From the NCBI GenBank assembly GCA_032718475.1, contig JAUCBJ010000290.1, positions 1 through 51,425 of the forward strand: a DNA stretch of 51,425 nucleotides, in the 5' to 3' direction. The notes beneath the pieces were generated by a model that did no database searches, was not told the DNA's origin, and worked only from the letters and a program-made list of their open reading frames with translations. Both the position numbers and the translations under genes were made by a program. Of the stretch, positions 22,423 through 49,396 are shown piece by piece. The stretch's first letter is position 1. Each line of letters starts with the position of its first letter. The DNA comes from Nemertoderma westbladi. Lineage: Eukaryota > Animalia > Xenacoelomorpha.

Positions 22423-22489
22423 ATTCCCACCTTCCGACACACCCAGTCACCGACCAACTTACTACTAGGATCGGCATGCTGCATTGCAG

Positions 22490-22843
22490 CTGCATTTTTA
22501 CGAATGCTGTGCCGGATTGTCAACAAAATTGCACCGCCACAACTCCCTATCACCCATGACATTTGCTAGATCATCCGCATCTTCAAGGCCAGTGTCCTTT
22601 AAGATGCGTCTCAAGAAAGTCATGGGCTGTCCACCATGCTTATTCACTCCATGAGGATGCCAAAGTACAAGATTATGCACTGGCTGGTCCTCACGGCGAA
22701 AGCAATGTCCTGCAAAGCGGAGTCGGCTTTGTTCTAGTGTCAAGCTTGGGAGAACCAATGAGACACACCCAATGTTATATAGTGTCTGGTTGGAGATGTG
22801 TGCATTGTACTTGACACAATGAACCCGGCATAGCATTCTTGTG
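22490..22843 (-). mobile_element. 3'-terminal fragment of an RTE-like non-LTR retrotransposon ORF
   Basis: TRML...HISNQTLY...RLRFAGHCFRREDQPVHNLVLWHP...KDTGL...VMGDRELWR matches the post-RT C-terminus typical of RTE/RTEX clade LINEs. Confidence 0.8.
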
Positions 22844-25800: not shown

Positions 25801-26035
25801 AGGCACCTTCATTGACAAAGAACTAGCCGAAGACATCTTTGCTGGACAACCCAAGTTCTGAACTAAGTTGAACCTTTCCGGAATTATGCAGGTTTGGAAA
25901 TCCACAGTAGCCACAGATTACTACGTGGGTGCGTTGTCCACTCCCCAGGATGAACTAGGAGAACATAGTGTAAGGTCGGTCAAAATGGTGGCTATAAAGA
26001 ACTTTGCTACTAGCCAAGTGGAGGCTTACAACTGG
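22844..26035 (+). pseudogene. gag: Outer BEL/Pao element: decayed gag and start of the protease (5' LTR not found)
   Basis: ORF pieces at 22841-23464, 23449-24585 and 24779-25861. BEL/Pao triple Cys-His array C(VLR)DGPHRLSGC, CYNCLRRGHQRRTC, CAKCGAKHHILLH. The protease motif reads ALLYSGS (Tyr in place of the catalytic Asp). Stops, frameshifts and an apparent deletion after VVKFNGD (~24720). Confidence 0.85.
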
Positions 26036-26547
26036 TGTTAGCTTATTCAATCCCGCTAACACCCCATAAAGTTATAAGCCGATAAGCAATATTGGGAGCC
26101 ACGAGATTGGATAATTAACCAACTCGTGCCATCCCAATAGGAGTGGGAAGGAAGCACACAATAGAGGGTCAGGGGCCAAACCCCTAACCCAGAGAGAATA
26201 GGTGGAGTGAATGGGAGCACTCCAAGGGGCGCCAACAAGGGTATCAACCAATCAGAGGGGGGAAAGGCATCGATTAGGTAGAGTAACAAGCAGTAATAAT
26301 ACCAATTCAGTTATCTCAGTGCAATACCGGTGCTAGTTTAGGTTATTACATAGTTTTAGATAGGGAAGGACCGGGACTTTAGTTACCGTATCCCGCCTTC
26401 CATATACGACAATACTATATCTATATCTATATCCACATATCATATTATATACGACAAACAACATCAGAACTCATTCACTCTTTATACACGGCGGGGACGC
26501 GTGAACTAAAACCGGATAAACCGGGATCCCTCTTGGATCCCGTCACA
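26036..26547 (+). repeat. 5' LTR of the inner element (512 bp)
   Basis: tgttagcttattc...cccgtcaca; near-identical to 39750-40287. Confidence 0.97.
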
Positions 26548-26615
26548 GTAACTAAATCAGCTGCCGCCCTAGATAAACTCAATAACCACTAGCCACCGAA
26601 ATCTGCAGAAGAGAG

Positions 26616-29600
26616 ATGAGTCGGTCAGGTGACACGACACCGACGCGGACCCCGGACGAAGAGCTAACGATCCGCGAGGCCGCAACCAGGCGATACAGGC
26701 CCACAACGCCGGACCCATCGGTAACGGGTCATCCGGCAGTTCAGGACGAGGGGGGCCTGGAACCCGAGGTCGAACCGAGAGAAAGAGAGAGCGAGACGGA
26801 GGGAGACGGAGACGAGTCGACACGGGACGGGGGTCGACGCACCGGTGTCGCCGGCCAGCCACAGGCCGAGGGCGACGAGCGGCCCGCCGAAACGGCGACG
26901 GTGGGGCCGACGGTGCGGCCCCGGACGCAGAGAGACGAAGGAGATATCGGTACCGATGTCGCCGGCCAGCCACAGGCCGAGGGCGACGGACGGCCCGCCG
27001 GAACGGCGACGGTGGGGCCGCCGGTACGACGTCGGACCCGGAGAGACGGAAGAAAGATCGGCGACGAGGACGTCGGGGTTTCTGATCGACTCCGACGGGC
27101 CTACAACGCGACCCAAAGACTACTAAAGGACGCTAAGAAGGAAGGGGCGAAGATAGACGAGGTGAGACTGAGGAAACGACTAGGTGAGTCGGATATACAC
27201 TTTAATTACCTAATGCGTTTTGGGCAGAGAGAACTAGCCGAGGAGAGAGCAAAAGGGGTTGCCAGCGAACTGTTTGAACTATGGGAATGTGGGAGTATGG
27301 AACCTAGCGTAGCGTCAGTGTACATAGGGCCATACTTGGTCGATGCCCGGGGAGTAAAATTAGTGGGTTAGAACAGACCTGAGGAGGGCGAATCCGAGGC
27401 TGACCCCGCGGATTCGGTCTCGTCGGTCGGAGGGAGTTCCGGGAGGAGGGGGAAAGCTAGTAGATCGGGAAGGCGGAGGGAATCCTCCACAACCGATAAG
27501 TCTGCTACATCCTCCGCGAAAGAAAGACGGGTGAGAGAGATAGACGCTAGGTACCGTCTCAATCCAGCAGTGCAAGGTAATAGAGAAGTAGGTAGACGGT
27601 TAGAGGAAGGGAGAGTGCTGCTGGAGAGGGAAATGGCATCGATTGGAGAGATAAGAGAGAGGGCCGAAAGGGCCGTGAGGAGCCTTAGGGAGTATGATGA
27701 AATAGAGTTGAAGGAACAAGAAGAGCGTGTGGCGAGAGAGAAAAGCGATCGCGAGAAGCGTGAAGCGAAGGAGGAAAGTGAACGCGAGAAGCGTGAAGCG
27801 AAGGAGGAAAGTGAACGCAGAGAGCGTGAAGCGAGGGAGGAGAGTGAGCGTAGAGCGCGTGAGGCGAGGCGAAGGGAGGGGATTAGGAGAGAGATGGAAT
27901 TGGCCAAGCAGACCGAACGGGAGGCTATGGATAAAATAGCAAAAGTGGAGCGTGAGCGAAGAGAATTGGAGAAACAGCGAGACAAACTCGTAGAGTATGA
28001 AGCTGTACACGCGCGTGAGGTGGAACTGGCGCAGTTGGGGGAGTCTGAGAGTGAGGCTGGCTCGAGTATTTTTGAGGAGCCGGGGGCCGTGGATACATTT
28101 ATTAATACCCCACTTACAGGGACCGCACGACAGACCCAAAACTGGTGTGACCGTACGGGCGGGGGGGGGGGGGGGGGGGGTAATAATGATAATGGTACAG
28201 TAGACGTGGTTAATATTAATAGTACCGTATGGGACAATTCTAATCAAACCTTTATTGCAGGAAATACTTTACCTAGTGGTAGTAATTTAAATTTAAATCA
28301 GAACATTCCTAATATTAATGTAGAAAATAATTCTAATATTAATGTAGCTACGCAAAATAATCCAATTAATCAAAGTAATAACCCAAATTCGAACTTACAA
28401 AATAATTTAAGTAATGCAATAACACAAAATAATCCAAATAACTTAAATAATTCAGCGAGCCCGAATTTACAAAATAATTCAGATAGTGTAGTCGCGCAAG
28501 ATAATTCAAATGATTTTATTTCGAACGAACAAATTAATTCCGTTTCCAATACGGGTGCTATTAATGTAAACACGTCGGGCGTGTATGGCCAGACAGACGA
28601 GGGCCTGGTAGGCCACGTAGTTGGTAGGCAGGAAATAGCTGGGTTAGGTAGACCCGGCGAGGGCCTGGTAGGCCACGTAGTTGGTAGGCAGGAAATAGCT
28701 GGGTTAGGTAGACCCGGCGAGGGCCTGGTAGGCCACGTAGTTGGTAGGCAGGAAATAGCTGGGTTAGGTAGACCCGGCGAGGGCCTGGTAGGCCACGTAG
28801 TTGGTAGGCAGGGAGTAGCTGGGTTAGGTAGACCCAGCGAGGGCCTGGTAGGCCACATAGTTGGTAGGCAGGGAGTAGAGGGCCTGGTAGGCCACGCAAT
28901 AGCAGAGGGAGAGGCGGGGGTAAATAGACCCGACCGCGGTAGGGTTGATGTGTCGATTGGAGAGGGATATAGTAGCGGGGTGAGGAGTAGCGAGGTTAGA
29001 TGTGGCGAGTGGGGGGGGGGGGGGGGGGGCTACGAGAACCCCACAACAGCGAGTTAGCGGCGAAAGGGGGGGGGGCAGAGAGTGTCCCACAGCCGTCAGC
29101 GGATAATGCGCGGGCCGAAATAGGTAAACCGCAACAACCGGCGACGGAAAGCAATAGGGGGATTGCGAGTATCCCCAGCGGCGTGCGACCGAGCAGAGAG
29201 AGACAGGTTGACGTCGTAAGAGGGCGGACGAAGCGTCGAGCCCGATCAGAAGAGGGAAGAAGAACAGTGGGGTTTAACCGGGAGGTCGACGAGAGATCTC
29301 ACGAGCGGGAACACTCCACTGAAAGGAGAAGAAGAGAAGACAGTAGTAGAGGTATCGCCGCGAATGATAGAAGAGCGAGGACGGATAGCGAGCCGTCGGT
29401 AGTTGAGATGAGAACGGAGAGTCAGTGGGGTCGGACTCCGGGAGATTGCCGTCGCCCCGGAGAGATGCGACCTGGCGAGGCGCACTACGCGCCGATGGAG
29501 GGGTACGCGATGTACCGGTACGAAGACGAGAACAGTAGAGGGGGGGGTCGAAGAGAAACTTTCCGACGGAATACACCTATCGATCGAGAATACGGTAGCC

Positions 29601-32600
29601 GCGGGGAGGATTATTCGAGAAGAATAAACTTCGATCCCGAGCGACACATGCAGACTGTAGGACGTACTGTAGGCCTTACTGCACATACCATAGGCCATAC
29701 TGAGAGAGGCAATGTAGGCGATAGGATAGCGTGGACAACGGGATTAAACCCGGAAGTCGCGGAATACATACCGGCGAGTAGGCCAGAAGCTGATAGGCCT
29801 ATACCGGTACCAGTACAGCAGTATGACTACAGCATGCAGGGACATAACATATACCCAGGGGAGGGGGGAATTATTGCGGATAGGTGTATGGGCCCCAACA
29901 TATTAACATCAACCCCAGTACCAAACATACCGGTGGGGGGGGGGGACAGGGTGACATTCCCCCATCACAATATCAACAATATACCCCGATAGGGGCAAGA
30001 ACAACGAGACCCTTGGATGAGAATAGGTCGTGTGATACAGACATATGGAGGGGGCCGCTACCCCCGATGACATACCCAAGTCAGAGAAAGTCAAGAAATA
30101 GGATGGACGGAACGCACCAGACAGGAGAAACTATGCACCACCCATCGAATCCATTGGAAGCGCAGGCGATGGGGATGGCCACGTTGATCGATGCGTTGAA
30201 AACGAGGATCGAGTTACCACCCGTGGAACCATTCAAATTCGATGGGAGCAGGCCGGAAGAATATCTACAGTTTCAGCGCATGTATAGTAACGAAATACTA
30301 ACAAAGAACTTGACGCAGGCGGAGTGCCTAAAGTATCTGCAAGTGTACACGGGAGGCCCAGCATACGACATCGTGAGGCAATATCAAGGAATAGAGGGCG
30401 GCTTCACGACAGCATGGCGGGCACTGGATAGGGAATACGGGCACCCGGCCAAGATCATCAGGCAGACGCTGAGAGGCATAACATCGGGTGGCCTACAGGA
30501 TAATCCCGTTAGCATTAAGACGTTCGCTAACAAAGTCGAAAAGGCGCTAATCGTGCTGAAGACGCTAGACGCGCCGTACGAGCTCAATGCGTCCAACAAC
30601 ATCACCACGATAGCGCAGGCACTACCAAACTGGCTGCGCAACAAGTGGAGGAAAATCGCCTTCTCCACTCGAGATAAGAAGGGTGCGGAACCGGGTTTAG
30701 AAGAAATGTCAAATTTCTTAAACTACGAGGCTGAACTAATAACTGACCCAGTCTATAGCGAAGACAGCCTGGGAAAGGGACCGAAGACAGATTACCATAG
30801 ACCGAAGCCAGAGCACAATACATCAAACGCATTACCGAGGCTCAGGCAATCATTGCCATATGCAGCGATGCAGGGGACTGCAAGTCCACAGCTAGCCGAA
30901 GATGAGACAACACCATGGAACGGACAGGGGAACAATAACAGCACGAATAAACATAACCCCAGTACGTCCAGTAGGCTGAATCCAAACAATAAGAATAGTA
31001 GGGACTTTAGTACGAACGCAACTGCGATACGCAATGCGCTGTATAAAGAGGGCTACGACCCAAAGAGCAAATGCCAGCTACACGCAAATGCGCTTCATCA
31101 AACCATGAACTGCAGGTACTGGCAGGCGCTACCTAGGCAAGATCAGATAGATTATGCGTTGAGCAATAATATCTGCTCGCGATGTGTAATGAGTGGACAT
31201 AGAGCAAGGGAGTGCAAGGAGAAGCCGATAAAATTTGGTCAGAGAAGAGGCCAAACGATGGCGACGAGCACAGTAGGAGCGAAGAAGAGAGGAACGGTGC
31301 TACTTGGAGTAGTACCGTTGAGAGTGATTGGGGAAGGCAATCGATCAGTAACAACGCTAATGCTGGTTGATAGTGGAGCTGCCTTCACATTAGTCGAGGA
31401 ATGGGTGGCCGAAGAGATAGGATTGAGAACGAGGCCAAGCAGAATGGCGGTAACAACCATCTCTAGCAAAGATGAGATCCTGGAGATGAGAACAGGACGG
31501 TGCGCAATTGCAGCAGTGGCACCAGGATGCGACTATGGGGCAACCATCGACCCCATCCAAGTGATAGAGTCAATTAATATCAATGCCAGGCGGCCAACCA
31601 ACATCGAGGTCGAGCAGTATAAGTTCCTGGACGACATTGACTTCTCAATCCCAGACGTGGACGTTAGGAAGGTATCCATCATAGTAGGTATGGACTGCCC
31701 AACGGCCCACGAAAGAATGCAAACGGTCTTCGGCGAAGACAAGCAGAGTGACCCGGTGGCCATATTAACACCATTCGGGTGGACGCTGAGTGGTCCAATC
31801 AAGAGCAAGATACCATTTAGGATGTCGGAGACATCAGGATGCATGTTCGCGGGAACAATGCAGGAAATGGGTGACGAGGGAGCAGAGGAGCAGCTCAAAA
31901 GACTGCTCAGACAAGATTTCGAGGGACTAAAAGAAACCGGGGTCGGGACCTCGGTAGAAGACAAGCAGGCTTTACAAAGCGTGGAGGAATCGATGACATG
32001 CAATGAGGGGCGGTATACTATAGGAATGGTATGGAAACTACCGAAGATACCGTTGCCCGACAATAGGGGGATGGTACTCACGAGACTCCGCAAGCTGAAA
32101 CAAACACTAAAACGGAGCCCCGAGAAGAATGAGTACATCCACAGGATGATTAAGAAGTACGTCGAGAAAGGATGGGCCGTGGAGTTACCGGTCGACGAGC
32201 CGAACACGGATAGAACATATTACCTGCCACTGCACGTGGCTTTAGATCCAAAGAAAGGTAAACTAAGGATGGTAGTCGACGCATCGGCAAAGACCGATGG
32301 AAAGTGCTTAAACGACTACCTGTTAGAAGGCCCAAACATATACAATTCGGGCATAGAGGTGTTACTTAGATTTAGAAATGGGAAACACGCCTTCACGTGT
32401 GACATAGAAGGCATGTTCAACCAAGTCCGTGTAACGGAAGAAGATAGCGACAGTCAACGCTTCTTATGGTATAACGGCGAGGAAGAACCGTCGATAATAC
32501 CGGCATATAAGATGGTGGTACAGAACATGGGGGCCAAGTTGTCTTCATTTACGACGACTATGGCAGTGAGAGACACAGTAAAGGGGAAGGAAGATAGATA

Positions 32601-35282
32601 CAGCAGTAGGGCCGTCGATATGATTCGACGCGGCTTCTACGTAGACGACGGAATGGAGTCTGGAAATACGGTTAAGGAGATACTGGATACAGGGCGCGAG
32701 GTTCGCGACTTCCTAAAGGGATCCGGCTTTAACCTGACCAAATTCCAATCCAGTTCGGAAGAATTTATCAAAGCCATAGAGGACAGGAAACCAGAATCGA
32801 CCATGGATAATCCCACAACAGCCAAAGGGCAGGACATGGCGATAAAGAGAACAGAATCTCAACAGAAGGCATTGGGAATCGTGTGGAACAGGGAGACAGA
32901 CGAACTGAAGTATCAGCTGAGCCAGGAGGGCGCAGACATCCACACGAAAAGGGGCTATGTATCGTATATAGCAAGGATATACGATCCCCTAGGCCTAGCA
33001 TCCCCATTATTAGTCACGGGGAAACAGATACTCAAGAGAGTATACAAACTGAAGGATGAGTGGGACGTAGAGGTACCAGAGGAAATCAAGAAACAGTGGA
33101 GCAAGTGGACAGGAAACTTGGAGAAGATGGGAACATACAACATGCCACGGGTGTATTTCCCGGATGGAAACATGACGAATCTGGACCTGCACATGTTCTC
33201 CGACGCATCGTTGGAAGCGTACAGAGCGGCACTCTACTTAGTACAACGAGAGGGGGCTCATAAGCCAAGACTAGCCTTTAGTAAAGCAAAGTCAACGCCA
33301 CCAGATTCAGCATCAGTTCCCAAGTTAGAATTGACAGCTGCGAGACTAGGAGTAAGAGCCACAGCCTACCTAGTGGATACTATTCCCAACATAGTGGAGA
33401 CACACTACTGGACGGACTCCATGGTAGTGCTTGGTTGGCTACATAACGAAAGGACGAGATACCCGATATTCGTCGCGAATAGAGTGGACGAAATAAGGGC
33501 GAGCACAGAACTGGAAAGGTGGCACTACTGCCCAACAGACGAGAACCCAGCGGACTTGCTGTCGAGGGGCGTGGAACGCCACACTTTCCTGAAGAAGGAA
33601 GTATTGTGGCAACATGGGCCACAATTTCTGAGCGATAGGGAGGCCTGGCCGCCGATGAGGAAGGTGGACCCGGGCTCGGAAGTAGTATCAGAAGGAGAAG
33701 AGGGAGATTCAGAGGGAGAAGAGATATACTCCCAGATGGTGAGGGAGATTAGGGACGTGCAACCAGGACGGGAACTGTGCGATAACCCGACGGATAAACT
33801 CCTCAGCTACAGTTCTAGTTGGTATAAGACCAAGAAACTAGTGGCGTACTGGAGAGCCTTCGGGAATTTCCTTGCGGGAGTCGGCAAGGACAAGAAGATC
33901 AGGACAACCATAGATCTGGAAGGAGCGGCCAAGGCAGTGATCCGCTATGAACAACGGAAGAACTACGGTAACCAACAGCACCTCCGACGGGACAGCGAGC
34001 TGATTACGCTGTCGCCACAACTCAATGACGACGGGATTCTAGTAATGAATTCTAGGGTGGGATACAACAACAGCATAGTCGTACCACCGAAACCCATCAT
34101 CATTCCTACAGGATCGCCAATAGTCCACCAGATCATATGGGACTCCCACAAATCGATATTACATGGGGGCACCAACCGAACCCTCACAGAGATAAGGAGG
34201 ACCTATTGGGTCAAACAACTGAGGAAGAAGGTAAAAGCGGTAGTGGGGCAGTGCCAGACCTGCCGACGAGCGAAGAAGGAGCGAGCCGTACAGGAGATGG
34301 CGCCACTACCGGCGAATAGGGTAAGACAGCACGACCCGCCATTTACGCATTGCGGTGTGGACATGTTCGGGCCGATAAAGATCAAAGTGATGCGACGCAC
34401 GGAGAAACGCTACGGCATTATCTTCGTATGCAACAATACGCGGGCGGTAGGGATAGAACTCGCCCAAGATGCAACCGCATCAGCGTTCATTAACGCCTTA
34501 GAAAGGTTTAGGGACCGCAAAGGTGGGACGATCGCAGTGATATAGCGACAACGGCACCAACTTTGTGGGCGCAGAGAGTGAGATGGCAGAGGCCTTGGAC
34601 ATCTTAGAGGGAGAAGAAGTCAGGGCAGCCATGAGGAGACGACAAGTAAAGTGGGAGAGAAGGACGCCGTATGCACCACATACACTAGGATGCGTCGAGA
34701 GACTGGTGGGCAGTTCAAAGCGTCTAATGACGAAGCTAATGAACACCCACATGGTCACTGAGGACGTCTTACGTACAGTACTTGCGAAGTGCGAGGGGAT
34801 CATTAATAGCAGACCGCTATATCCGGAGAATGATGACCCTGAGTCACTAGACGTGCTAACGCCTAGCCATTTCCTAATGGAAAGGCCAGCGACCATCGAT
34901 ATGCGGGGTGTAGACCCAGATGACATACACTCCCGCCAAAGTTGGAAAGTCGCTAAAGCAATAAGCGCTTAAGTTGCAATAAGCTGCAATAAGCAATAAG
35001 TATTGGAGGAGGTGGGTCGAGGAATACCTACCCACTCTCCATAAACGAAGCAAGTGGAGGAAGTCAAACAGGGAGTTAAGAGAGGGAGATCTCGTAATCG
35101 TTACGGATGATACTATCATCAACAACCAATGGCGGTTGGCGAGAGTTGTAGGCACCTACTCCGACGAGGACGGAAGAGTCCGATCGGTAGAAGTGCGGAT
35201 AGGTGGAAAGATAGGTGCGAAGGACAGAAAAACCTACAGGAGAGCTGTAGGCAAATGCTGTCTATTAGAAGGGGCACCTTAG
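26616..35282 (+). CDS. gag-pol: Inner gag-pol polyprotein, interrupted (about 2880 codons if repaired)
   Basis: 26616-27371 and 27531-29057 are in one frame split by a single TAG. Frame changes fall at G runs (~29011-29029, ~29935-29945). 29884-34545 has Gag (LPPVEPFKFDG; CSRCVMSGHRAREC), protease LVDSGA, RT YVDD, RNase H FSDAS/PKLEL/WTDS/NPAD and integrase HHCC plus GVDMFGP. There is a frameshift at (Y)SDNGTNF (~34545) and a 28-bp insertion at 34967-34994. The tail YWRRWVEEYLPTL...DEDGRVRSV ends at TAG 35282. Confidence 0.93.
28598..28900 (+). repeat. 60-bp in-frame tandem repeat in the gag N-terminal extension
   Basis: EGLVGHVVGRQEIAGLGRPG x4 plus partial copies; the first three copies are identical in DNA. 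Confidence 0.95.
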
Positions 35283-35399: not shown

Positions 35400-36005
35400 G
35401 GTAGGTACGCAGTTAGTAGGCAGAGAGTTAGTAAGAAGGTACGTAGTACCTAGTTAGTTAGTTAGTTAGGAGGTACGTAGTACCGCCAGTTAGAGAATTA
35501 GTTAGAGGGTACGTAAGTACCGTTAGTTAGTTAGTTAGTTAGGAGGTACGTAGTACCGCCAGCTAGAGAGTTAGTTAGAGGGTACGTAAGTACCGTTAGT
35601 TAGTCAGTTAGTTAGGAGATACGTAGTACCGCCAGTTAGAGAGTTAGTTAGAGGGTACGTAAGTACCGTTAGTTAGTCAGAGAGTTAGAGGGTACGTAGT
35701 ACCGCTAGTTAGTTAGAGTTAGAGGGTACGTAGTACCGATAGTTAGTTAGAGAGTTAGAGGGTACGTAGTACCGCTAGTTAGTTAGAGTTAGAGGGTACG
35801 TAGTACCGATAGTTAGTTAGAGAGTTAGAGGGTACGTAGTACCAATAGTTAGTTAGAGAGTTAGAGGGTATGTAGTACCGATAGTTAGTTAGAGAGTTAG
35901 AGGGTACGTAGTACCGATAGTCAGTTAGAGAGTTAAACGGTACGTAAGTACCGTTAGTTAGAAGAGTTAGAGTTAGAGGGTACATAGTACCGTTAGTTAG
36001 AAGAG
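35400..36005. repeat. Minisatellite between pol and the extra ORF
   Basis: Units of ~30-40 bp built from (gtta)n and gagggtacgtagtaccg, about 15 copies. Confidence 0.9.
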
Positions 36006-36487
36006 AGAGAGTAAGAGGTAAAAGGGGATATAGATATAGGTATTAGTTAGCAGTTAGTAGAGAGATGGGGGCATATGAGTACAGCTGGATAAATCGTGTG
36101 GCCACACGACGCATACTGCTGTACTGCATGGACCCACAGAGTAGGCCAGAATGTGGATTAGAGAATAGAATAATCCATAGGCAGTAGTAAGTAGTAGGAC
36201 AGTAGAATCAAAGTAAATGGATAAATAAATAGAATAGGGCTGAAAGTTGTAAAATAGTGGCAACACAAGGGAAGTTATTCTAGAACATAATAAAAGTAAC
36301 GGACAGAAATTGTAAATTACGTTCATTTACTAGCTTCAAAATTAATTAGGAATAATTTAGGTTAAAGGGCGCAGTTAAGTAGGAAATAGGCCATTATCGA
36401 ACTGTACAGAACATCCTAGATACATCACTCATCTGTATTGCGCCTTGGTAAGGCACCACCTTGCAGGTGAGCGAGTGAACGTTCGGA

Positions 36488-39037
36488 ATGGCGAGTAAGT
36501 TGATCAGAAAGAGAAAGGCGGAGTCAGGAGGAAAGGAGATACTGGTGGATTTCACCGAGAGGCATCCAGAAGAGAAGACGAGAGGATACTACGAGAGGTT
36601 GGAAAGGGGTCACGCGGCACGAGCGCTGCAGGATCACTTCCGGGAGGCGCACGAACAGCGGCTGGTCGGGACCTACGGGACCCCGTCGCTGGACAATGCG
36701 ATCTTCCAACACTTCCACTACGTGGTGAAAGGGGACGAGGCGAAGTTCGGGATTCCGAAATACCCGAGGGAATCACCGAGGAAGGACTGGAAGAGATTCA
36801 TAGAGTCCGTCAACAGAGGAGGATATATGATCCTAGATGACGAGGGAACCGTGGAAGACGAGGCGGGTTCGAGACGAGGAACGGCAGGGTCGGCCAGGAC
36901 CATACTCCTACATTTGGCCGCGCCAAATGGGGACATCTTCTTATTCGACCTAGGGACGTATGGGAAGAAGGACGGGCCGAAATTAGACCGATTACCGAAA
37001 GCGGTACAAGTCTTAGTAAGAGAGAAGTCGACGACGAAAGTGGGATCGGCGATTCGCGAGGACGTGGAGAGGATCATCGGTCCGGACGCCACCAACCTCC
37101 TGGATATGCAGAAAGTCTTTATGGCTATGACGGCACCGGATGGATTGGGGGTAGTCGAAAACACAGGCCAATGCGGGGCGGTGGCGATGGGCCAATTATT
37201 GGGGCTCGTATGCCACAAACCGATGGACTGGGGGAAGTTTAGGGAAGAATACGGAGCAGAACTAGCGAACTCGCTAAAGTGGGGAGCGAGACCGGGAAAG
37301 CAGGAGGTATATCAGTTCCGCAGGGGAGCGATAAAGGTATATCAGAAGCGATATATCCTGCAGGAGGACTGGATGATGATAAGTTTGCTTAACTTATTCA
37401 TTACCGTGATTATCGAGAGGGAACCAGGGGCATTTCTGTTATCGGGATCACCCCTAAGCTACAGGAGAGCCTTTAAAGTGGCCTTTGACGGTCTGGTAGA
37501 CCACCCGGGGCTGAAGGGCGAGTCGGTGTACTACAACACCCGACATCTGGTAGACGGGGAGACAGATACACCGTATCAGAGATGGGAGCAGCTAGAGACG
37601 GATAGACGAGAAGCAAAGCGACTGGAAGAAGTCGCTAGACGGGAGAGGATAGAAGCAGAGGAGAGGGAAGAGGAGGCCAGGACACAGAGTTACGGCTTCG
37701 AGGAACAGGCGGGCCTAGACGAACTTCATTGGACTTCGTCAGGGAGTTCGGGGAAGTCTCTAGGGCGGGAATTGGGATGGACGGTGGGATCGCCGAAACA
37801 GTCGACATCGGGGTTGCAAACGATGCCCATACCAGCGGGCGCCGAGGGCGACCAACCGCCAAGGAAGTTAAGGGAGCTAGAGGGATGGAGAGCTACGGGC
37901 GAGAGCCAAGGCGGGAAGGGACATAGTGGATCCATTGGGATACCGGGATTGGAGACACTACCAGAAGAGGAGGACGACGACGACGAGTTCGGAGAGATGC
38001 CGTCCATCGAGAGGATAGGCCACTCGGACACGGACTGGGTTGGCGGAAGGGTGGTGACGGCCAGTGGGGCGAGGGCCTTCTGGAACAGATCCGGCAAGCG
38101 GACCTGGGTGCACGAGGAGCCGGCGATGGATTTCGCGGGGAGCACCATCAGGTTGGGCGAACAACCGGGGACGGCACCACGGGTAGTATTCGGGGAGACG
38201 ATGCCCGAGAGGGGCGGAGAGATCGACGTAGATAGAGAGACCAACGTAGAGAAGTTCGCCTACCAGCGACTCCACAGACCGCGGAGATCGCTTGGGACGA
38301 AAGACGAGGTGGGACGGGAGACATTGGTACTCGGCTGCGACTACTGTGGGAGACAGACCCATTGGGAAAGCAGCTGCCTATACCGGTTCCAAAAGGGAAC
38401 CTTTTGTCTCTACTGCAGAGAACCAAGTCACAGGATGGGGGCGTGTCCACGGTTGCATAACCGATGTCCAAAGTGCCACTTTCGGGGACACTACGGACGC
38501 GAGTGCGACTGGATGAACGACGAGGAGAAGTTCACAAGATTCGAGGAGTGGGCCGACGTCGGGGCCATGACGCGCCAGCGCATGAAGGCCCAGGAGTTCA
38601 AGTGGGGTTTCTTCCTTATCAATCAGGAGACTCACATGGAAATCATAAAGCGGAGGCTACCGTTTACCTACCAAGAGGTAGCAACGGCGGCGTCGTACGC
38701 TGGAGTGATGAACACGCAAAGGTATCTGGACAGGTGGATGCCAGAGAACCGAAGGGAGTTTAGGGATTTCTTGGCGGAGCACGTACCAAAGGCAATGAAA
38801 ATGATCCTATGGGACGCCACCAGAGGGAGACAACCGGGTCACTCTGAGGGGCCACCGGCGAAGCGATATCGGGCACTAATAACACCAGCGCCCAAGGAGC
38901 CAACGACCGGGATCAGCAAGGAAGTGGCGGCGAAGGTCCGAAAGCAGAAAGCGGATGATGCCAGAGGAACGGTGATAACCAAGAAACGACCCAGGGAAGA
39001 GGACGCCAGGGGGAACTACCCCCGGAGGAACAGATAG
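36488..39037 (+). CDS. Intact 849-aa accessory ORF: DEDDy-like 3'-5' exonuclease domain plus three CCHC zinc knuckles
   Basis: ExoI-like ILDDEG; LLHLAAPNGDIFLFDL; LPKAVQVLVREKSTTKVGSAIRED (ExoII-like); LLDMQ; ExoIII-like QKRYILQE. Knuckles CDYCGRQTHWESSC, CLYCREPSHRMGAC and CPKCHFRGHYGREC. Basic termini. The ORF is certain; the exonuclease call is from motif recognition. Confidence 0.8.
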   Translation: MASKLIRKRKAESGGKEILVDFTERHPEEKTRGYYERLERGHAARALQDHFREAHEQRLVGTYGTPSLDNAIFQHFHYVVKGDEAKFGIPKYPRESPRKDWKRFIESVNRGGYMILDDEGTVEDEAGSRRGTAGSARTILLHLAAPNGDIFLFDLGTYGKKDGPKLDRLPKAVQVLVREKSTTKVGSAIREDVERIIGPDATNLLDMQKVFMAMTAPDGLGVVENTGQCGAVAMGQLLGLVCHKPMDWGKFREEYGAELANSLKWGARPGKQEVYQFRRGAIKVYQKRYILQEDWMMISLLNLFITVIIEREPGAFLLSGSPLSYRRAFKVAFDGLVDHPGLKGESVYYNTRHLVDGETDTPYQRWEQLETDRREAKRLEEVARRERIEAEEREEEARTQSYGFEEQAGLDELHWTSSGSSGKSLGRELGWTVGSPKQSTSGLQTMPIPAGAEGDQPPRKLRELEGWRATGESQGGKGHSGSIGIPGLETLPEEEDDDDEFGEMPSIERIGHSDTDWVGGRVVTASGARAFWNRSGKRTWVHEEPAMDFAGSTIRLGEQPGTAPRVVFGETMPERGGEIDVDRETNVEKFAYQRLHRPRRSLGTKDEVGRETLVLGCDYCGRQTHWESSCLYRFQKGTFCLYCREPSHRMGACPRLHNRCPKCHFRGHYGRECDWMNDEEKFTRFEEWADVGAMTRQRMKAQEFKWGFFLINQETHMEIIKRRLPFTYQEVATAASYAGVMNTQRYLDRWMPENRREFRDFLAEHVPKAMKMILWDATRGRQPGHSEGPPAKRYRALITPAPKEPTTGISKEVAAKVRKQKADDARGTVITKKRPREEDARGNYPRRNR

Positions 39038-39749
39038 GTTCCCAGAGTCGAGGGAGAGAGACTGGGACTTGGACGTGGTACGCCTGGAAGGCGCCGCGTG
39101 GGATGTACGAACTATTAAGCACAAATTTAATTAATGCAAAATAATCATATAAGTGCAATTTGTATGTACGTACGTAGTAATTAGTAATCTAGAAATATAT
39201 ACGTTCGGAGTAAGTACTATAGTCATACAACCTTTCTCAATTAGCTACTGGGACTGGGGGATAACTGACTATGGCACTATGGACGAGACACCAGACAATT
39301 TCACACTTCTTGAGTGCGACGGCATGAGAGGGGGGGGGGGGGAGATTCGTCAGAAGGGAAGAGACAGTCGAAGTGAGGTTGAGGGACGGAATAATAGTGC
39401 AGAGTGCGGAGAGAGTGCGGACGCAATTCTAGTGTGGGGGGGAGAATAAGAGGCTGAGTGAGGGACGAGGAGGTCCGAGTGTGAGAGAGTTAGGGTGAGA
39501 GTGAAGAAGAGATAGGGCGGAAGTGTTGGGAAAACAAAAGTTGCGTGAGAGGTGAGCGCGATCGGCCCGACATGAGACGCAAGGCACACAGGGTAGCGTT
39601 ATCATACCCATAGGGGGCGGCCTGGAAAGCCGACTCCGAGAGAAAAGAATTCCACCCCACACCCGATACTAGATCGGGATCCAGCGGGATTGTAGCGCAC
39701 TTTTTTGGTTGATGCTATCTTCTTACCGGGAAGATAGCATGGGGGGGAG

Positions 39750-40287
39750 TGTTAGCTTATTCAATCCCGCTAACACCCCATAAAGTTATAAGCCGATAAG
39801 CAATATTGGGAGCCACGAGATTGGATAATTAACCAACTCGTGCCATCCCAATAAGAGTGGGAAGGAAGCACACAATAGAGGGTCAGGGGCCAAACCCCTA
39901 ACCCAGAGAGAATAGGTGGAGTGAACGGGAGCACTCCAAGGGGCGCCAACAAGGGTATCAACCAATCAGAGGGGGGAAAGGCATCGATTAGGTAGAGTAA
40001 CAAGGCCAACCGTGCAATATAGCCACTTGGCAGTAATAATACCAATTCAGTTATCTCAGTGCAATACCGGTGCTAGTTTAGGTTATTACATAGTTTTAGA
40101 TAGGGAAGGACCGGGACTTTAGTTACCGTATCCCGCCTTCCATATACGACAATACTATATCTATATCTATATCCACATATCATATTATATACGACAAACA
40201 ACATCAGAACTCATTCACTCTTTATACACGGCGGGGACGCGTGAACTAAAACCGGATAAACCGGGATCCCTCTTGGATCCCGTCACA
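39750..40287 (+). repeat. 3' LTR of the inner element (538 bp)
   Basis: Follows the PPT. Differs from the 5' LTR by two substitutions that I could see and a 26-bp indel (40005-40030). Confidence 0.97.
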
Positions 40288-43277
40288 ACTGGGATGAAGG
40301 CCATTTTACCCAGCAACATAATATACCTAGATTCAACACTGATTATCCAGGGGTGCAGATCTTACTTGGCCAAAATGCGCACGAAGCGCTTGAGACATTA
40401 GAAAAACGGCCTGCTCGACCGCAACCATTGCAGACGTATGCGGGAAGAACGAGAGTAGGTTGGTACTTCACTGGACCTTCCCGTAGAACCCTAATGGAAA
40501 GACTCCCTAATGAAAGAATACATCAGGTGAGTGAATGGGAAGAAGAAATCAGTGAGGGAGAAACCACAACTGAGGAAGTTCCATACTCCATCTCATCAAT
40601 CAACATGGCGGACAATTTACTTATAACGATGAATTAAACGAAGTGATAGATCGATAGATCGAAGTGATAGAACTAAACGGATTTGTCTAAGTATCCTAAG
40701 CACTTATTTCGATCCATTGGGATTCATTAGCCCAGTTATATTAGTTGCTCGGAGCTTAGTGCAACAAATGTGGCTCGAAAACCACTCGTGGGATGATCCA
40801 CTTAAGGGAGAACTGCTAAAGAAGTGGATGAAATGGGAAGATTCTCTACCATCCATCGAGAACTTTAAGATTTCCGTTCATATTTTGGTCACGTTCTCCC
40901 CACGTATTCCTATCAACTCCATGTGTTTGGAGACGCCAGCGATATGGGAATAGGTATAGTAGCCTACCTGAGAGTTGAAACTCCGGATGGAATTAAAGTT
41001 GCCTTGGTCGCCTCTAAGGCCCTAATAAACAACAAACTACGAGTTCCTAGAGCGGAGTTAAAGGCGGCTCTATACGCTACAGCCATCGGCCGGAATGTAA
41101 CAGAACAGATCGACTATCCACTGGAGAAAACTGTTTATTGGACTTATGCTTTACTCGTTCTGGAGTATATAACAAATGAAGTCTGTCAGTTCATCGTCTT
41201 CATTACCAACAGAGTAGCCATTATACTTAGTCGCTCTAATGTAGATCAATGAAGACATTGCCCTGGGACGATCAATCCAGCCGACATCGCCTCCAGAGGA
41301 GCAACTCCTCAAGAACTGATAGATACTCCAGACTGGTTAGGTGGACCCGACTTCTTAAGTAAAGAAGAGGATGAATGGCCTCCTCATCTTACCATGGCGG
41401 AGATTAGACAAGCCAAGGGAGCGGAGAAAGTCAAACCTAAAACCCGGATGAGTAAATCAAAGTTATTTAAACCCATGATAGATCTGTCTGTACTACACAT
41501 CTCCGGGGACGACGCTGTGGATCTAAACTCCACCACTACGAACAAATCTGTTATAGAAATCAGGGAAAGAGACTGGAAATCTGGAACACCAGATGTCTCG
41601 CAAGGACTCTCCCCTCTCCTACAGAGAGCAATAAATCATTATAGCTCCTGGAATCGGCTTTGCAAGGCCGTTGTGTATCTTAAGAGATGTTTCCATAATC
41701 ACTATTCCAGGACGAAGATCGCTAGTGATACCGCTCCAATAATATCCGAAAAGGTCCATGTTGTTAAAGACCTTCCCACTTATAAAGTGTCTGATAGGTT
41801 TCTGACTGAGAAGATCAGTTACCATGAACATGAGGATACCAATAAGCAGATACTGAGACTCCTGCAATGCTACGAAGATTCCGATAAGTATTTCCAGTTG
41901 TTGAGAAATCCACAGATGCGTTTAAGGGATCGTTTCTCTAGCACAATGATAGATGGGTTAATACGTGTCGGAGGGAGATTAACTAGTGCTCCATTGTCCT
42001 TTGACACTAAATTTCCCATACTCATTAGAAATCTTGAAATACAATTAAAGATGATTGTAGATGTTCACAGTAGGCTTTACCATGCTGGTAGAGAACGAGT
42101 TCTTAGCGAAATTCGAACTCGCTATTATTTCCATAAGCCCCATAGAGCTCTGAACCAAGTTCTTAGGAACTGTATACCCTGTAGGAAAGCATTTGGTAGG
42201 CCTTTAACACAGAGAGAGGCAGAATTACCTAGGGAACGAGTAAGCTTCTATGAACCACCCTTAATTAATACTGGTGTGGACTTATTTGGCCCTATTGAAG
42301 TATATCGTGCTAGGACTATAGTCAAGCGATGGTGTGTCATTTTTGTCTGTATGACTTGTAGAGCGATCCATCTAGGTATGGTGAATTATCTATCTACCAA
42401 CAGCTTCATACTGAGTTTACGCCGACAGATCGCTCGTTTTGGGACTAGCAATACTATGAGATCCGACAAAGGAACGAACTTCATTGGCGCCAATAATGAG
42501 ATCAAAGCTTACGTGAAAGATTGGAACCAAAGACAGGTGGATGATCAGCTAAGGGTAACGGCATCTAGCTGGACCTTCAACGCCGCCGACGCCCCTTGGT
42601 GGGGAGGAAGTTGGGAGAGATTAATACGGAGCATGAAGACCGCATTTCACTTTGTAGTGCCGTGCCGCGCGTATCTCACCGATGAACTTTTGCGGACATT
42701 AATGGAAGAAATCGCCGCCTATCTTAACGAGAGACTGCTTATGCCAGTCTCATCGAGTCCCGACTCCCTAGAAGCACTAACACCCGCGCATTTCCTACTA
42801 AAGAAACCTGTAGCCATGCTCCCGCAATCGGAAATCATGGACGGAGATGAATACTGCCGACAAACTTGGCAACTTATGCAGTTATTATCCCGTCGTTTCG
42901 CTGACCATTTCGAAAAACATTATCTTCCTATGCTACAACTTCGAACAAAGTGGTTTGCGCAGCAAGAAAACGTAAGCGCCAGAGACATGGTCCTTATCGT
43001 GGAATCAGATCTTCCACGTAAGCGGTGGCAGACAGGTCGTATCATCGAGACTCATATATCCGATGATGGTTTAGTGCGATCGGTAGAACTCGTCGTCATG
43101 CGACGTAACTTTAAGAAACCTGGAATTGTATTCGAAACACAACAACTTAATCGCCCAGTTGGTCGTTTATGTTTACTGGAAAGAGATCGAGAATTGTCCG
43201 GAAACTATGGAAGGCAAGATACTCTTCCCACGACCACCTCCCTAATCCAGCAAACATCTAGGGACTCCCCAACGTAA
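40288..43277 (+). pseudogene. pol: Outer BEL/Pao pol remainder: protease end, RT deleted, RNase H region and integrase
   Basis: Removing the inner element rejoins EAYNW|DEGHF...QILLGQ...VGWYFTGP in frame. Next come TKRICLS...FDPLG, FGDAS, PRAEL and NPADIASRG. Integrase (41394-43277) has H..YHAG, CIPC, GVDLFGP, SDKGTNF and WERLIRSMK. No RT motifs are present. Confidence 0.92.
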
Positions 43278-43859
43278 CACCATTTGGAGTGGGTGTGTGA
43301 CAACATTATTTTATTTTATTTTTTATTTTTTTTATATTTATGTATGTATTATTACATAATTTTATTATTATAATCGTTTTCTTTAATTTTATTTAGTAGT
43401 ATAATATTTTAACGATTATTCAGTAAATTAGTGCAATATATATTCGTGTTTATTACTTAATTACTTAGCATAATATATTTCGTTTAACGGCGAGAAATAA
43501 TTCATTTTCTCTTTCCTTACTGTCCGTATCATACTATAAATATGTGACTACAGTAAGATGAAATGTCCGTACTTATTAAAGTACAAAATACCGCCCCTAC
43601 TATACTTAAGTATTATTGGTAAGTAGAGTATTAGGAATGCAAAGTTCAGATCCTCGTGTCTCGGCTAAACCAAGCTCTAGGTAGACCTTGGAAACGACTT
43701 GCCTCTTCTCACTGACATTGCTTCTTGCAATATTGCTCTCATACCGTATATTAAATAATACATATAGTAGAATGATGTCCATTTAACAGTAGCGTTGAAG
43801 TTCAAAATATTAACAAACATTATTAATATCATTAATGTTATCAAACAAATCTGTTAATA

Positions 43860-44270
43860 ACCTTCAAATAAATCTGTTAAACCCTTTGACCATCTGAAAT
43901 TCTAGTCGATTAAGATATCGCGGCACCCACCGATATACTTGAAAGACAAAATTCTAGAATCAGTGGTTAACGTCCCCAGACATGTTCTGGAATAAATCGG
44001 TGCCATCTTAAATATTAAATATTTAATAAATATTTATAAAATCTGTTAAAACAAATGTTATAATAGAGTAAATGCTGACAAATTAACTCTAGAGAGTTTG
44101 TAAATCAAAATCTATTAAAATTTAGATCCTTTAAAATTCTAGTCGATTAAGATATCGTAGCACTTACTGATACTCTTAAAAGGACAAAATTTCTAGAATT
44201 AAGGATCCTAGTTCCCAGACATGTTCTGGAATAAAATTGTGTCTATTTTAATATCAAATAATAAAATTTA
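43860..44270. repeat. Imperfect direct repeat (period ~237 bp) in the outer element's pol-to-accessory-ORF spacer
   Basis: aaattctagtcgattaagatatcg occurs at 43897 and 44134; cccagacatgttctggaataaa occurs in both copies. Confidence 0.85.
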
Positions 44271-45057: not shown

Positions 45058-48000
45058 ATGACTGAGTTGGTAGAAGATGATCTTGGTATCAGGGAGCGAT
45101 ATACCCTACCATTGCAGGCGTTTGTTGATAGTTTAATAAGCAGCGACGCTAGTCAACATACTACAGAGGACGATGGCCGTTATATCGAACCGCCAATGTC
45201 AAAGGAACAGCTCACACGTGAATTGGACTATAGAAAATTCACCGCTCGCTATACGCATCGTAATGGTACGTATATGGACTTCTTAACGACTGGTCATCCT
45301 ATCGATTTACACGACACGGACGATGTAGACACCGAAAGGGAAATGATTCTATTTAAATATCATACCCAGCGGAGTCGGAATGATAAACTGAGAATTGAAC
45401 ATGAAAATTCTATTCGAAACCGACTCGAAAGAGAAGATATTGAAGAGCCAGATAAACGCAGTGACTTCAACGAATATTTGGAATTCTTGAGAGAAACATA
45501 TCTCAATGTAGCCAGTCAACAAAATCTAGAAACTCGATATCCTCAAGGTATACATCATAACCCTATGATAGAACTCAAACGACTCTATTTCACTATGATG
45601 TATCTTACCGCCGATCGACCACTACCTGTTGTACCGGATAGCTTCAAACTGGAACTGGAACTGGAACTTGTAAAACTGGAGAAAGATCACCAGCGTTTCC
45701 CCTACAAGACGTGCGTCTTAGGTATTATTGCGATGAATGCCCTAGACCCAACCAACAAACGGAAAGACATAAACATCCGCGGAGACGTTGCGCTAAACAC
45801 AGTTTTACTCGCTATACTTACGGGAGTTTCGAGCAAAACTTGTTCGACGAATCACCCACGCTCGCTCGACTCAAACGATCCTTAAATAAACCGATGATCA
45901 GAGTTCCGGAATACTCGGTCAGACCTCCTTATTCCCTGGTGAGACCTCAGACTCTTGATCCTAATAGTATGACGGATCCTCCTGAACTGTACTCATTGTT
46001 CAAAGATCTAGTGTTACCCGAACAATTAGTCGGTGGCACTCTGGTAGTGGGCTCCCTAGATATTCGCCCATCCTACCTAGCTGGATTGGGACGCGGACAT
46101 CTAATATCGCCGTTCAACCCGTATAATCGTCCTGGTTTAACTCCGATACAACCTGTCACCGAGGTGGAGGAGAGCGTTGTACGAAACGCATTAGACGCTA
46201 TTCGACAAAAGATCGGAAAAGGAACCTATGATTGTTTAGACAAACGTAAATTGCAGCAACAAGTCCAAGCGGTAAAAGAATTAGCTTTACCCCAGTTCGA
46301 TCTGGAAATCCAGAATCTCGAAGAAGATATCGAACTTGGATGAACCTACTTGCTGCAAGAGTTTTTGGACGAACGCTTCCAATGACAAGCGGAGGAAAAT
46401 CAGCTCGAGGAGAAGCATGTCGAAATGGACGAGAGAGAAGAAGCAGCTTTAGCCCAGCCAGAAGCTCAAATCCGTATGACTGATCTCTATTCCAAAACCA
46501 CCATTCATCCTTCGATGGTTCCCCAGTTCGGAGACAAACTCTTCGCCACGGTACAACCCCAACCGGTTGATATCAACTTAAGATCTAGAGATCTTATCGC
46601 TGACGCTCCTATGTTACAACGTCTGCCAATCGAGGCCGCTCGTGCCGACAGTGTACTCGTTGAACCTCCGGACAATCGAGCGGATCTTGTCCGTCGTATG
46701 GTACACGAGGTCAACCTACGTGCTAGACCTTTACCGAACTCATTTTATGGGATCAAAGACCACCCCTATTATGTCAATTTAACTCAATATATTATATGGT
46801 AAAACCGGAAGATCCTACACATAGTTTAAGGTTTCTACCACTGATAAACCCCCTAGATCTTGTTGAACTAGAACAACTACAGAAACATCTAGATCAATTG
46901 GTCAAAGTAAACTCATTTAGAAAACCTTATAACGTTTCAAGAATAGAAAAGGATATAATGCCTCTGTATAATCTCGATGGATTTATTAAAACTCGATTAG
47001 TCCATTGGAATCTCGATGTATTATTCGAGGAAGAGAGAATACAGCGATATGGAGATGCAGAGACTTATACTACACATTATCTGAAGTATAGCGATCTACC
47101 TAACGCAAGCGAACGCGCTACCTTATGGCATCCGGTGGGTATGACTATAGAAAACGCCACCAAGGAGTGGAACGAGACTCTTAACGTTATCGAAATGTAT
47201 GGAGTTGTCACTTATGATAACGAAGGTAGCATTCCGGTTGGAGAACTGGGAACTACGCGAATGATACACATACGTGGACTAGCTGGTTCTACCCATTTGT
47301 TTACTCGAGCGTGTTCCGACATGATTTATTATTCTTTTGAGACTCTCACCGAGATACAAAAGAAACTCCGACATGGACAATTCGAACTCGCTCAGCGTTA
47401 TGTTACCGATACCGAGCGCAAACCGGCCATGGGTTTAGATGGATTGATGCTACCCCAGCCAGTGCTCGAGATGCTGTTCGATGAGAGAATCCTTAAAATC
47501 GGCTCAGCTGTTTATGGAGATCTCCAAAATATCTTCAGAAACATGGAGAATATCCCATATCCTTTCATAGACACCCAGCTGATTGCTCCCTGGGCAGAAG
47601 GCCGAGGTTTCTTCCAAACTATGTATGCCAATACATCCAGCGGCATCAATAAAGTACAACGAACCTCTATCGGACATCTTGCCTTCCAAGAATGCGGATG
47701 GAATTTCAAAGTCGGAAACCCTGTCAGCTACCAACAAGTATATGGAGATCATTATTCTCGCTTATACTTCGAAGGACCATTAACTGCACCTGGCGTCGTT
47801 TATAGCTTTATGAGTGTTCCACTCCGTCCCTCATTAGCTATATACACTATCTTCGAGAACGCCGCACTTGCCGGTTGGCTAGCTGATGTGTGCAGTCGCA
47901 CTATACGCGCCCATCCCTTGTTACTTGGAACCAAGCTCGCCAAGCTAGATGAACACAATAAATTCATCCGACTCGAATGCTTTAGGCACTTTCTGACTCC

Positions 48001-49318
48001 GTTCCGTAACGTTGATAGTCTGTTCAAGGACTGCACTCTGACCAAGCTCAGCTTAAGAGACTCAGCTGCTGAGAAGTTGGACAGCACTGGATTCGCCATT
48101 TTTAAGGACGTGTGTATACAGAACTTACATTCATCTGTTATACAAAGACCCCGAATCCCCACAGGTTATTCTATCGTGGAAGTTCAAACAGTGGGTTCGC
48201 TTGAGGAGACAGCTACACCTACCTCAGCTATGCAATTGGAAGATGAACCAATTTGCTTAGAGTCCGAGGAGATTCAACCCACAGCTCCCAGGAGCAGTGA
48301 CAACAACTACATTCTGGAATGGTATCAAGGTTCACAATGTCTCACCGCATACGACTATCGGCATGCCAATTATGTTTCTAGGAAACATTGCTGATTATGC
48401 TCCTCACAAGATCACTTCACCCCGGTGGACTCCAGCGTACCCTGCTCCTACTTTAAAGATCAACCTTCCATGGAGATCTATTGCGCGTATTGTAGACTCA
48501 ATAACCTACACATATTCGCAGTCTGTCCTCAATTTATGACTCAATGTCATCATTGCCAGTTTAAAGGAAACGCAAGTTTCGATTGCCCTTTCAACCGAGA
48601 TCTAGAAAGCGTAGACGAAATGGTTGCCCTGCGTTATATTCGAGCCTGGGAAACTAACGCGGATCTCCATTGCGAATCACGTCATCGATACTACCCTGGA
48701 CATGCCTATGAAGGAGTCTATGCATTTCACCCATATCTCTTTGCTTCCGTTGAGCAAAAATCTCGCACCCCTAGCTACGAGCTAATGAAGCGTGTTGGCG
48801 AGAATATTTCAACTAAATTTGTTCGCAAGTACCTTAGGAATATTAATCCTAACGACCTTAATTCCTATAACTTGATCAACTTCATCCGTTAAGATCCGGA
48901 ATATGGTGACTTGTTCGTAAACTCGCATCCAGAGCTACAAGAAGTTCATAGACGACCCTATGAATATAGAGCCCGAGAACGCGAGTTGGAAAGAACCATC
49001 AAACCGAGGAAATTTCTCACTACTCACGGTCCACCTACCGCTCTCGTGCAAATGACTCGTCAGGGACCAGTAAGAGCTGCTGTCCTGAAACGCGCTCTAA
49101 AGGTCGTTCGACCTCGTTCTACTGAGGTTGATATCGATCAACCGGGTACCTCGACCGGCGGATACACCGACCGTAATCCGAAACCTTCTGATGCAATTGT
49201 ATTGCACCCCTCACCCAGGAGTTATAGCCCTCCTAGTAAAGTGGCTCGCCCCAAAGAGAAAAAGACTCTTACTAGCCTCAAAAAACTTCGTAAACGCCGT
49301 TCACGAAAGAAGGACTAA
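45058..49318 (+). pseudogene. Disrupted accessory ORF of the outer element: DEDDy-like exonuclease plus three zinc knuckles (about 1400 codons)
   Basis: 46796-48394, 48425-48892 and 48911-49318 are one frame broken by TGA and TAA. 45711-46343 and 46425-46802 are one frame broken by two TGA. Motifs: TYDNEG; LPQPVLEMLFDERILKIGSAVYGD; FIDTQ; PL...AIYTIFE; C*LCSSQDH..C, CAYCRLNNLH...C and CHHCQFKGN...C. Homologous by eye to 36488-39037. Confidence 0.8.
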
Positions 49319-49396
49319 TAGTTTAGAGTATTTTTGTATTTTAGAAACTGTGATTTTTTATATTTTATAGACTTAAATCCCATTTTCTGGGAGCGG

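Follow-up and report, generated by a model that had tools for sequence, protein, structure and literature searches.

What is a predicted nuclease doing in the envelope (env) position of an animal retrotransposon? The question is raised by a 51,425-nucleotide (nt) stretch of Nemertoderma westbladi DNA (assembly GCA_032718475.1, contig JAUCBJ010000290.1, positions 1 to 51,425 of the forward strand), termed here the window, which contains a 14.25-kb BEL/Pao element (the inner element) inserted into an older BEL/Pao element (the outer element) that spans 22940-43277. Within its long terminal repeats (LTRs), between the end of integrase (35282) and the polypurine tract, the inner element carries an intact third open reading frame (ORF), termed ORF3, of 849 amino acids (aa). 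The answer proposed here, tentatively and from the predicted protein, is that a young element carries ORF3 as an intact third gene, that this gene encodes an active DEDDy-type exoribonuclease joined to RNA-binding zinc knuckles, and that it serves as an accessory against the small-RNA silencing of the host. The parts of this proposal differ in strength: ORF3 is very probably selected cargo of the DEDDy-knuckle kind; the predicted nuclease is probably catalytically active; and the anti-silencing role is a working proposal that falls somewhat short of being probable.

ORF3, its predicted nuclease domain and its carrier

ORF3 starts 1.2 kb downstream of pol and bears, in DEDDy order, the residues D117, E119, D192 and Y289-x3-E293; its motifs start at 36836 (D-x-E, i.e., D117 and E119), 36935 (IFLFDL), 36992 (LPKAV), 37037 (KVGSAIRED), 37097 (LLDMQ) and 37352 (Y289), and the catalytic tetrad reads D-E-D-E. 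Besides a long, acidic, disordered linker, the protein has three zinc knuckles and ends in a basic tail, in which two motifs (aa 790-796 and 833-837) resemble nuclear localization signals (NLSs). A first-pass annotation, made from the letters alone, had described an intact 849-aa ORF inside the LTRs of a BEL/Pao element with a damaged gag-pol, three Cx2Cx4Hx4C knuckles, a DnaQ-type exonuclease motif series in place of env, and neither signal peptide nor membrane anchor. All of this is borne out, including every motif of the series at its place, except that the last catalytic position is E rather than D (Y-x3-E).

Identification of the domain as DEDDy-type comes from feature and profile comparisons. 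In an ESM Atlas feature search with the inner domain, PF01612 clusters made up 24 of the 30 matches (the first named cluster at 0.93, with 170 shared features), the top three matches being unnamed eukaryotic clusters; a search run independently with the corresponding domain of a broken homologue of ORF3 located downstream of the outer pol likewise gave PF01612 clusters for 24 of 30 (0.92). Against a profile of 31 RNase D domains the inner domain scored above all 1000 shuffles (best 3.2 bits), its own score being just 4.6 bits and the 31 domains having been chosen with a profile that included the query. A joint alignment with these domains superimposes D117/E119, D192 and D206 on the catalytic motifs of RNase D. 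A two-sequence profile of the inner and outer domains has RNase D as its top PDB match (E 0.32) and, in one whole E. coli genome, picks out RNase D alone, and the outer piece on its own matches the NCBIfam RNase D model TIGR01388 (E 9.1e-5). The third motif, ExoIII, is Y-x3-E in both families, with a D at +1 in the inner protein alone. The retention of the acidic residues and the tyrosine in both families suggests a DnaQ-type fold and catalysis, and suggests that the domain may act like a DEDDy enzyme while lying outside the curated-family cut-off.

Relative to the PF01612 threshold of 23.6 bits the inner domain gives no match, and the outer piece reaches 11.8 bits (E 0.21). Several further observations weigh against the identification. 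The inner domain alone has no match in Pfam, NCBIfam, PHROG or PDB scans; 4 of 1000 shuffles did as well as full-length ORF3 on the RNase D profile; the joint alignment left Y289 off the RNase D tyrosine, ExoIII (Y289-x3-E293) having been set by eye from a pairwise alignment; E stands in for D at the fourth catalytic position; and two AlphaFold models have a predicted local distance difference test (pLDDT) of 31.9 and 29.4, too low for a fold match. Compared with the host RNase D/WRN-exo/EXD/Mut-7 group (PF01612), which provides the best profile and feature matches, ORF3 shares motif order and spacing, but it scores far under the Pfam cut-off and has three CCHC knuckles, a long acidic linker and a Y-x3-E ending; no HRDC domain was detected in it.

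Nor does ORF3 resemble an envelope gene. As judged by hydropathy and motif counts, in place of a dedicated signal-peptide predictor, it lacks each of the env features looked for (signal peptide, C-terminal anchor, glycosylation, disulfide cysteines): the N-terminus is basic, unlike a signal peptide; the 19-mer of highest hydrophobicity (mean 1.45) lies at aa 290-309 and corresponds to what is predicted to be the final helix of the nuclease domain rather than to a C-terminal anchor; there is one N-glycosylation sequon; and 9 of the 11 cysteines lie within the knuckles. The env reading was rejected on the hydropathy. A reading of the knuckles as a gag duplication was rejected as well, the element's own gag knuckle matching them only at E 0.96.

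The carrier is assigned to BEL/Pao because its pol matches Peptidase_A17 (E 3.5e-39), DUF5641 (E 2.5e-25) and DUF1759 in a Pfam scan, Pao-specific domains that accompany the order protease, reverse transcriptase, RNase H, integrase (PR-RT-RH-IN). Its LTRs have TG...CA termini and a 5-bp target duplication, as in BEL/Pao, and two substitutions and one gap of 26 nt distinguish them from each other; this near identity implies a recent insertion. The gag-pol region contains one stop (27369-27371) and four frame changes (near 29000-29057, 29884-29992, 34541-34545 and 34972-34983), with integrase disrupted at two places; the two gag frame changes, both at G runs, may be sequencing errors. In gag, about 1100 low-complexity codons with 111-, 33- and 60-bp repeats precede the capsid core. 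The spacer between pol and ORF3 is repetitive in both elements, as a 36/73-bp array in the inner one and as a 240-bp-spaced duplication (76% identity, 43870-44260) in the outer one.

Copies, an older relative and published systems

Is ORF3 maintained, or merely present? Four public sequencing runs, one of them possibly from the same source as the window, were aligned to 36100-39760. The two DNA runs yielded 8785 and 5125 contigs across four identity bands, counts that are not readable as copy number but that point to a large and diversified ORF3 element family. The variation figures that follow refer to the 40 of 531 substitutions, 12 of 25 insertions or deletions (indels) and 15 of 33 joints that were listed. 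Of these 40 substitutions, 36 lie in the ORF, and 27 of the 36 are synonymous, compared with 33% expected for transitions (p 3.5e-7); the rough ratio of nonsynonymous to synonymous variation (pN/pS) over the copies is 0.10-0.17, and within aa 236-296 synonymous changes account for 13 of 14. All 12 indels fall outside ORF3, though the ORF makes up 70% of the stretch. Copies otherwise show ordinary, transition-rich divergence. Selection on ORF3 among copies, which the first-pass annotation had implied, is thus upheld among the changes listed. A run guessed to be RNA, bearing another organism's label, gave low-depth pieces about 89-97% alike, which were not taken as evidence of transcription.

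A second, distant ORF3 lies in the window downstream of the outer pol, broken into six open pieces. Its exonuclease piece (46796-48394) is about 26% identical to the inner domain; it has retained D-x-E, the D of ExoII, D-x-Q and Y-x3-E, with the same D-E-D-E tetrad. The strength of this likeness varies with the method: a semi-global alignment of the two domains gives z 6.9 (0 of 2000 shuffles), with boundaries picked after the alignment had been seen; a local BLOSUM45 comparison is marginal (16 of 2000); the C-terminal half of the domain is alike only weakly (73 of 2000); and past the knuckles the two families show no significant likeness (854 of 2000). The knuckle pieces align at E 1e-7, chiefly via cysteine spacing. 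The outer homologue is, in addition, longer at its N-terminus by some 580 codons that belong to no known family, and it has its own basic tail. The two ORF3s have diverged from each other about as much as the two pols, which fits long co-descent of ORF3 with pol, and the presence of a broken relative in a distant second element makes ORF3 a likely old cargo of such elements.

The outer homologue is tied to the outer pol by position alone, the 5' LTR being missing and there being two candidate right ends. That 5' LTR was looked for in the window without success, and the outer element lacks its primer site as well. The right end is uncertain, with a purine run plus TG at 49389-49398 and another after pol at 43286-43299. 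No reverse transcriptase core was detected in the outer pol, where the protease end and the Peptidase_A17 region lie within less than 400 bases of each other (40293-40672); together these indicate a large internal deletion in the outer copy. Where the outer element breaks off, a minus-strand ORF (22498-22836) without a match in the Pfam scan resembles the C-terminal end of a protein from an RTE-type long interspersed nuclear element (LINE).

Homologues were sought more widely. A search of 5.8 billion proteins with inner aa 40-400, with the outer piece and with the knuckle alignment (the last among longer proteins) returned no homologue; a two-domain profile run with HMMER against 1.84 billion representatives gave 0 matches at E 0.001; scans of metagenome and viral contigs, made with ORF3 and with an integrase alignment, found nothing; and a phage tblastn found no ORF3 homologue--all in collections that contain few animal repeat proteins, which limits these negatives. 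A plasmid match, H1 (E 0.07), was dropped because the plasmid has no exonuclease-like ORF.

The first-pass annotation knew of no description of such an architecture. This holds in part. DEDDy exonuclease ORF3s have been published in the Juno and Vesta LTR retrotransposons and the Athena/Terminon elements of bdelloid rotifers (PMC5408684), for which RNA 3'-end processing and silencing were proposed speculatively; here and below, statements on this source, and on PMC3706591, PMC3118150, PMC6431247, PMC5718144, PMC6338049 and PMC11599104, refer to the portions of text available. As in Juno, Vesta and Terminon, ORF3 is a separate frame after pol that replaces env, its DEDDy-type domain keeps the catalytic residues, and the tetrad has one D-to-E change. 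Unlike the rotifer carriers, which are Ty3/gypsy-like or Penelope-like, the present one is BEL/Pao; the available rotifer description places knuckles in gag and pol and none in ORF3, whereas three occur in ORF3 here; and the rotifer motif is DEED rather than DEDE, a distinction drawn from the published description (PMC5408684). In Laccaria and Ectocarpus, Dada DNA transposons also bear a DEDDy domain with all catalytic residues, but it is embedded in the DDE transposase and forms no separate gene (PMC3706591). Three further papers restate the rotifer and Dada cases (PMC6431247, PMC5718144, PMC6338049).

Among retrotransposons of its own family (Belpaoviridae, characterized by gag, pol and sometimes env, the sole third gene named, with sizes of 4.2-10 kb; PMC8742986), the inner element resembles those with an env-like ORF3 in its LTRs, PR-RT-RH-IN order, Pao Pfam domains, polypurine tract and third-ORF position (PMC8742986; PMC3118150); it differs in its predicted soluble nuclease-knuckle third ORF, its 14.25-kb length and its lack of a tRNA-type primer site. 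A BEL/Pao exonuclease or an ORF3-knuckle fusion was not found in a literature search whose scope excluded Repbase, subscription papers and the primary Terminon paper and in which the slash form 'BEL/Pao' was unsearchable. The word 'exonuclease' has 0 occurrences in the available text of PMC3118150, the supplementary element sequences of which could hold unannotated ORFs of this sort, and the available part of PMC11599104 has nothing relevant. What is new, then, is the BEL/Pao carrier, the triple-knuckle fusion, the DEDE site and the two deep families; the kind itself is published. No demonstrated activity of a transposon-borne DEDDy ORF is reported in the literature covered.

Possible roles of the encoded protein

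RNA as the substrate is suggested by the knuckles and by the closest profile matches, which are to RNase D and PF01612 clusters. An accessory rather than core function is suggested by the definition of the family through gag, pol and sometimes env (PMC8742986) and by the existence of copies with ORF3 deletions. An accessory, RNA-binding exonuclease most plausibly works at the host interface, and the favoured reading is therefore that guides of the silencing machinery, or the precursors of these guides, are trimmed or destroyed. A link of DEDD proteins to silencing exists on the host side, in mut-7, Maelstrom and EXD1 (PMC5408684). The protein would be expressed separately, from a subgenomic message, and its basic tail (one in each of the two families) would import it into the nucleus. 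Zinc knuckles favour single-stranded RNA, Nibbler trims small RNAs, Egalitarian acts in RNA transport, and the Air proteins feed RNA to Rrp6. By analogy with this last pair, the ORF3 knuckles would grip single-stranded RNA and pass its 3' end to the nuclease, and guide RNAs or precursors matching the element would be over-trimmed or destroyed.

Other observations count against the proposal as a whole. Host enzymes of this group work in favour of silencing, not against it; DEDDy-carrying families have no clear copy-number advantage according to the available rotifer account (PMC5408684); none of the listed substitutions lies within aa 92-235, leaving the ExoI/ExoII stretch uncovered by the selection estimate; and several of the listed joints remove parts of ORF3, so that defective copies exist. 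A bolder version--that an old BEL/Pao lineage, with tRNA-free, self-priming carriers, encodes an active one-chain nuclease-knuckle suppressor that destroys the small RNAs of PIWI-interacting RNA (piRNA) or small interfering RNA (siRNA) silencing, with a DEDE site and no detectable public relative--is doubtful as a whole.

Among competing explanations, the one that fares best has the nuclease processing the element's own RNA, either by cutting a self-derived primer back from its 3' end to the paired part or by clearing RNA fragments during reverse transcription. According to the ICTV profile of Belpaoviridae, the 18-nt primer site is complementary to host tRNA-Arg or tRNA-Gly (PMC8742986). As judged without direct comparison to host tRNAs, the inner element has no such site: no TGG start follows the 5' LTR, and the first 9 bases after it pair exactly with the LTR itself. 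Removal of a candidate 41-nt GT-AG intron (26342-26382) would yield the best duplex of 247 junctions, at -17.2 kcal/mol compared with -13.7 for the next and -11.5 for the unspliced form. (On its pol domains the element is still placed in BEL/Pao despite this primer site, and the ICTV profile rests on few elements.) RNase D-type enzymes, moreover, trim structured RNA 3' ends, a role also proposed for the rotifer proteins (PMC5408684). ORF3 is encoded apart from Gag-Pol, however, and packaging of its product would not be automatic; own-RNA processing is considered rather unlikely as the principal role.

The first-pass annotation had left the choice between nuclease and pseudo-nuclease open, and here the nuclease becomes the likelier of the two. 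As a pseudo-nuclease, ORF3 would bind RNA or host partners, serving as a silencing-factor decoy or a transport adaptor in the manner of EXD1 or Egalitarian. The E for D at the fourth catalytic residue and the very weak match between active families and the inner domain are in keeping with this, as are a long acidic disordered linker plus knuckles that would suit an adaptor; inactive DEDD derivatives do occur in piRNA biology (PMC5408684). Yet two families about 26% identical have both retained the tyrosine and every one of the four acidic positions, and the rotifer proteins likewise have a D-to-E change, their residues being regarded as intact (PMC5408684); an inactive protein is therefore considered unlikely, a little more so than own-RNA processing.

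More improbable still is a DNA 3'-5' exonuclease that proofreads complementary DNA (cDNA) or processes DNA ends at integration. The DEDDy group does include WRN and polymerase proofreading domains (PMC5408684), the Dada domain was given a proposed role on DNA ends (PMC3706591), the tail is basic and of nuclear type, and a 14-kb element exceeds the 4.2-10 kb range of its family (PMC8742986). Set against these are the lack of fusion to reverse transcriptase or integrase and the ordinary, transition-rich divergence of copies. The preference of knuckles for single-stranded RNA also speaks against a DNA substrate.

That ORF3 was captured as a fragment of a host gene, or is a passenger, and brings the element no benefit, as copies with internal ORF3 deletions and an outer homologue that is broken and tied to its pol by position alone might indicate, is highly improbable in view of the synonymous excess and the exclusion of listed indels from ORF3, the failure of protein searches and scans to return a host-like homologue, and the similar divergence of the two ORF3s and the two pols; a host-gene reading was rejected.

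The proposal that ORF3 is anti-silencing cargo bears on the question of whether the retrotransposons of animals encode means to counter small-RNA silencing. More broadly, nuclease cargo in the env position is extended from Ty3/gypsy and Penelope-like elements to BEL/Pao, which indicates that DEDDy enzymes are recruited repeatedly by unrelated retroelements, and an intact, apparently selected, predicted soluble protein with a full active site offers a practical handle on the function of transposon-borne exonucleases.

Feature coordinates and neighbouring repeats

Table 1. Features of the inner and outer BEL/Pao elements, in window coordinates
Feature	Coordinates	Strand	Remarks
Outer BEL/Pao element, left part	22940..26030	+	Broken gag and protease start; 5' LTR outside window
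Inner 5' LTR	26036..26547	+	TG...CA ends; target duplication ACTGG at 26031-26035
Primer-binding position, inner	26548..26561	+	Usual TGG start absent; pairs with the LTR of the element itself, exactly over 9 nt (26378-26386)
Long N-terminal gag region, inner	26616..29992	+	Three open pieces; no Pfam match
Gag core, protease, reverse transcriptase, RNase H, integrase, inner	30067..35282	+	DUF1759, Asp protease, RVT_1, Peptidase_A17, Integrase_H2C2, DUF5641
Tandem array of 36/73-bp units, pol-ORF3 spacer, inner	35422..36009		
ORF3, 849 aa, intact	36488..39037	+	No internal stop
Predicted DEDDy-type 3'-5' exonuclease domain, ~aa 95-315	36770..37432	+	ExoI D117/E119, ExoII D192, D206, ExoIII Y289/E293; fold predicted
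Three Cx2Cx4Hx4C zinc knuckles, aa 617-673	38336..38506	+	Exact matches starting 38336, 38405, 38465
Basic low-complexity tail, 28% K/R	38822..39034	+	Two NLS-like motifs, aa 790-796 and 833-837
Polypurine tract, inner	39741..39749	+	
Inner 3' LTR	39750..40287	+	ACTGG again at 40288-40292
Outer element, right part	40293..43277	+	Peptidase_A17 pieces and integrase; 27-34% identical to inner pol
Broken ORF3 homologue, downstream of outer pol	45058..49318	+	Six open pieces
Open piece with homologous exonuclease domain	46796..48394	+	YDNEG, VYGDL, FIDTQ, Y-x3-E
Open piece with knuckle-like Cys motifs	48395..48892	+	Aligned to inner knuckles; histidines not all kept

Three further features of the window lie to the left of both elements. 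A satellite array of 26- and 34-bp units (periods 26, 60 and 86) with a strong strand bias occupies positions 1-9176; a perfect 33-bp palindrome with a 1-nt spacer occurs at 16448-16514; and a long imperfect inverted repeat at 21674-22428, the arms of which are 89-92% complementary, resembles a miniature inverted-repeat transposable element (MITE) and has a direct repeat of 41 bp on its flanks, at 21545 and 22421.

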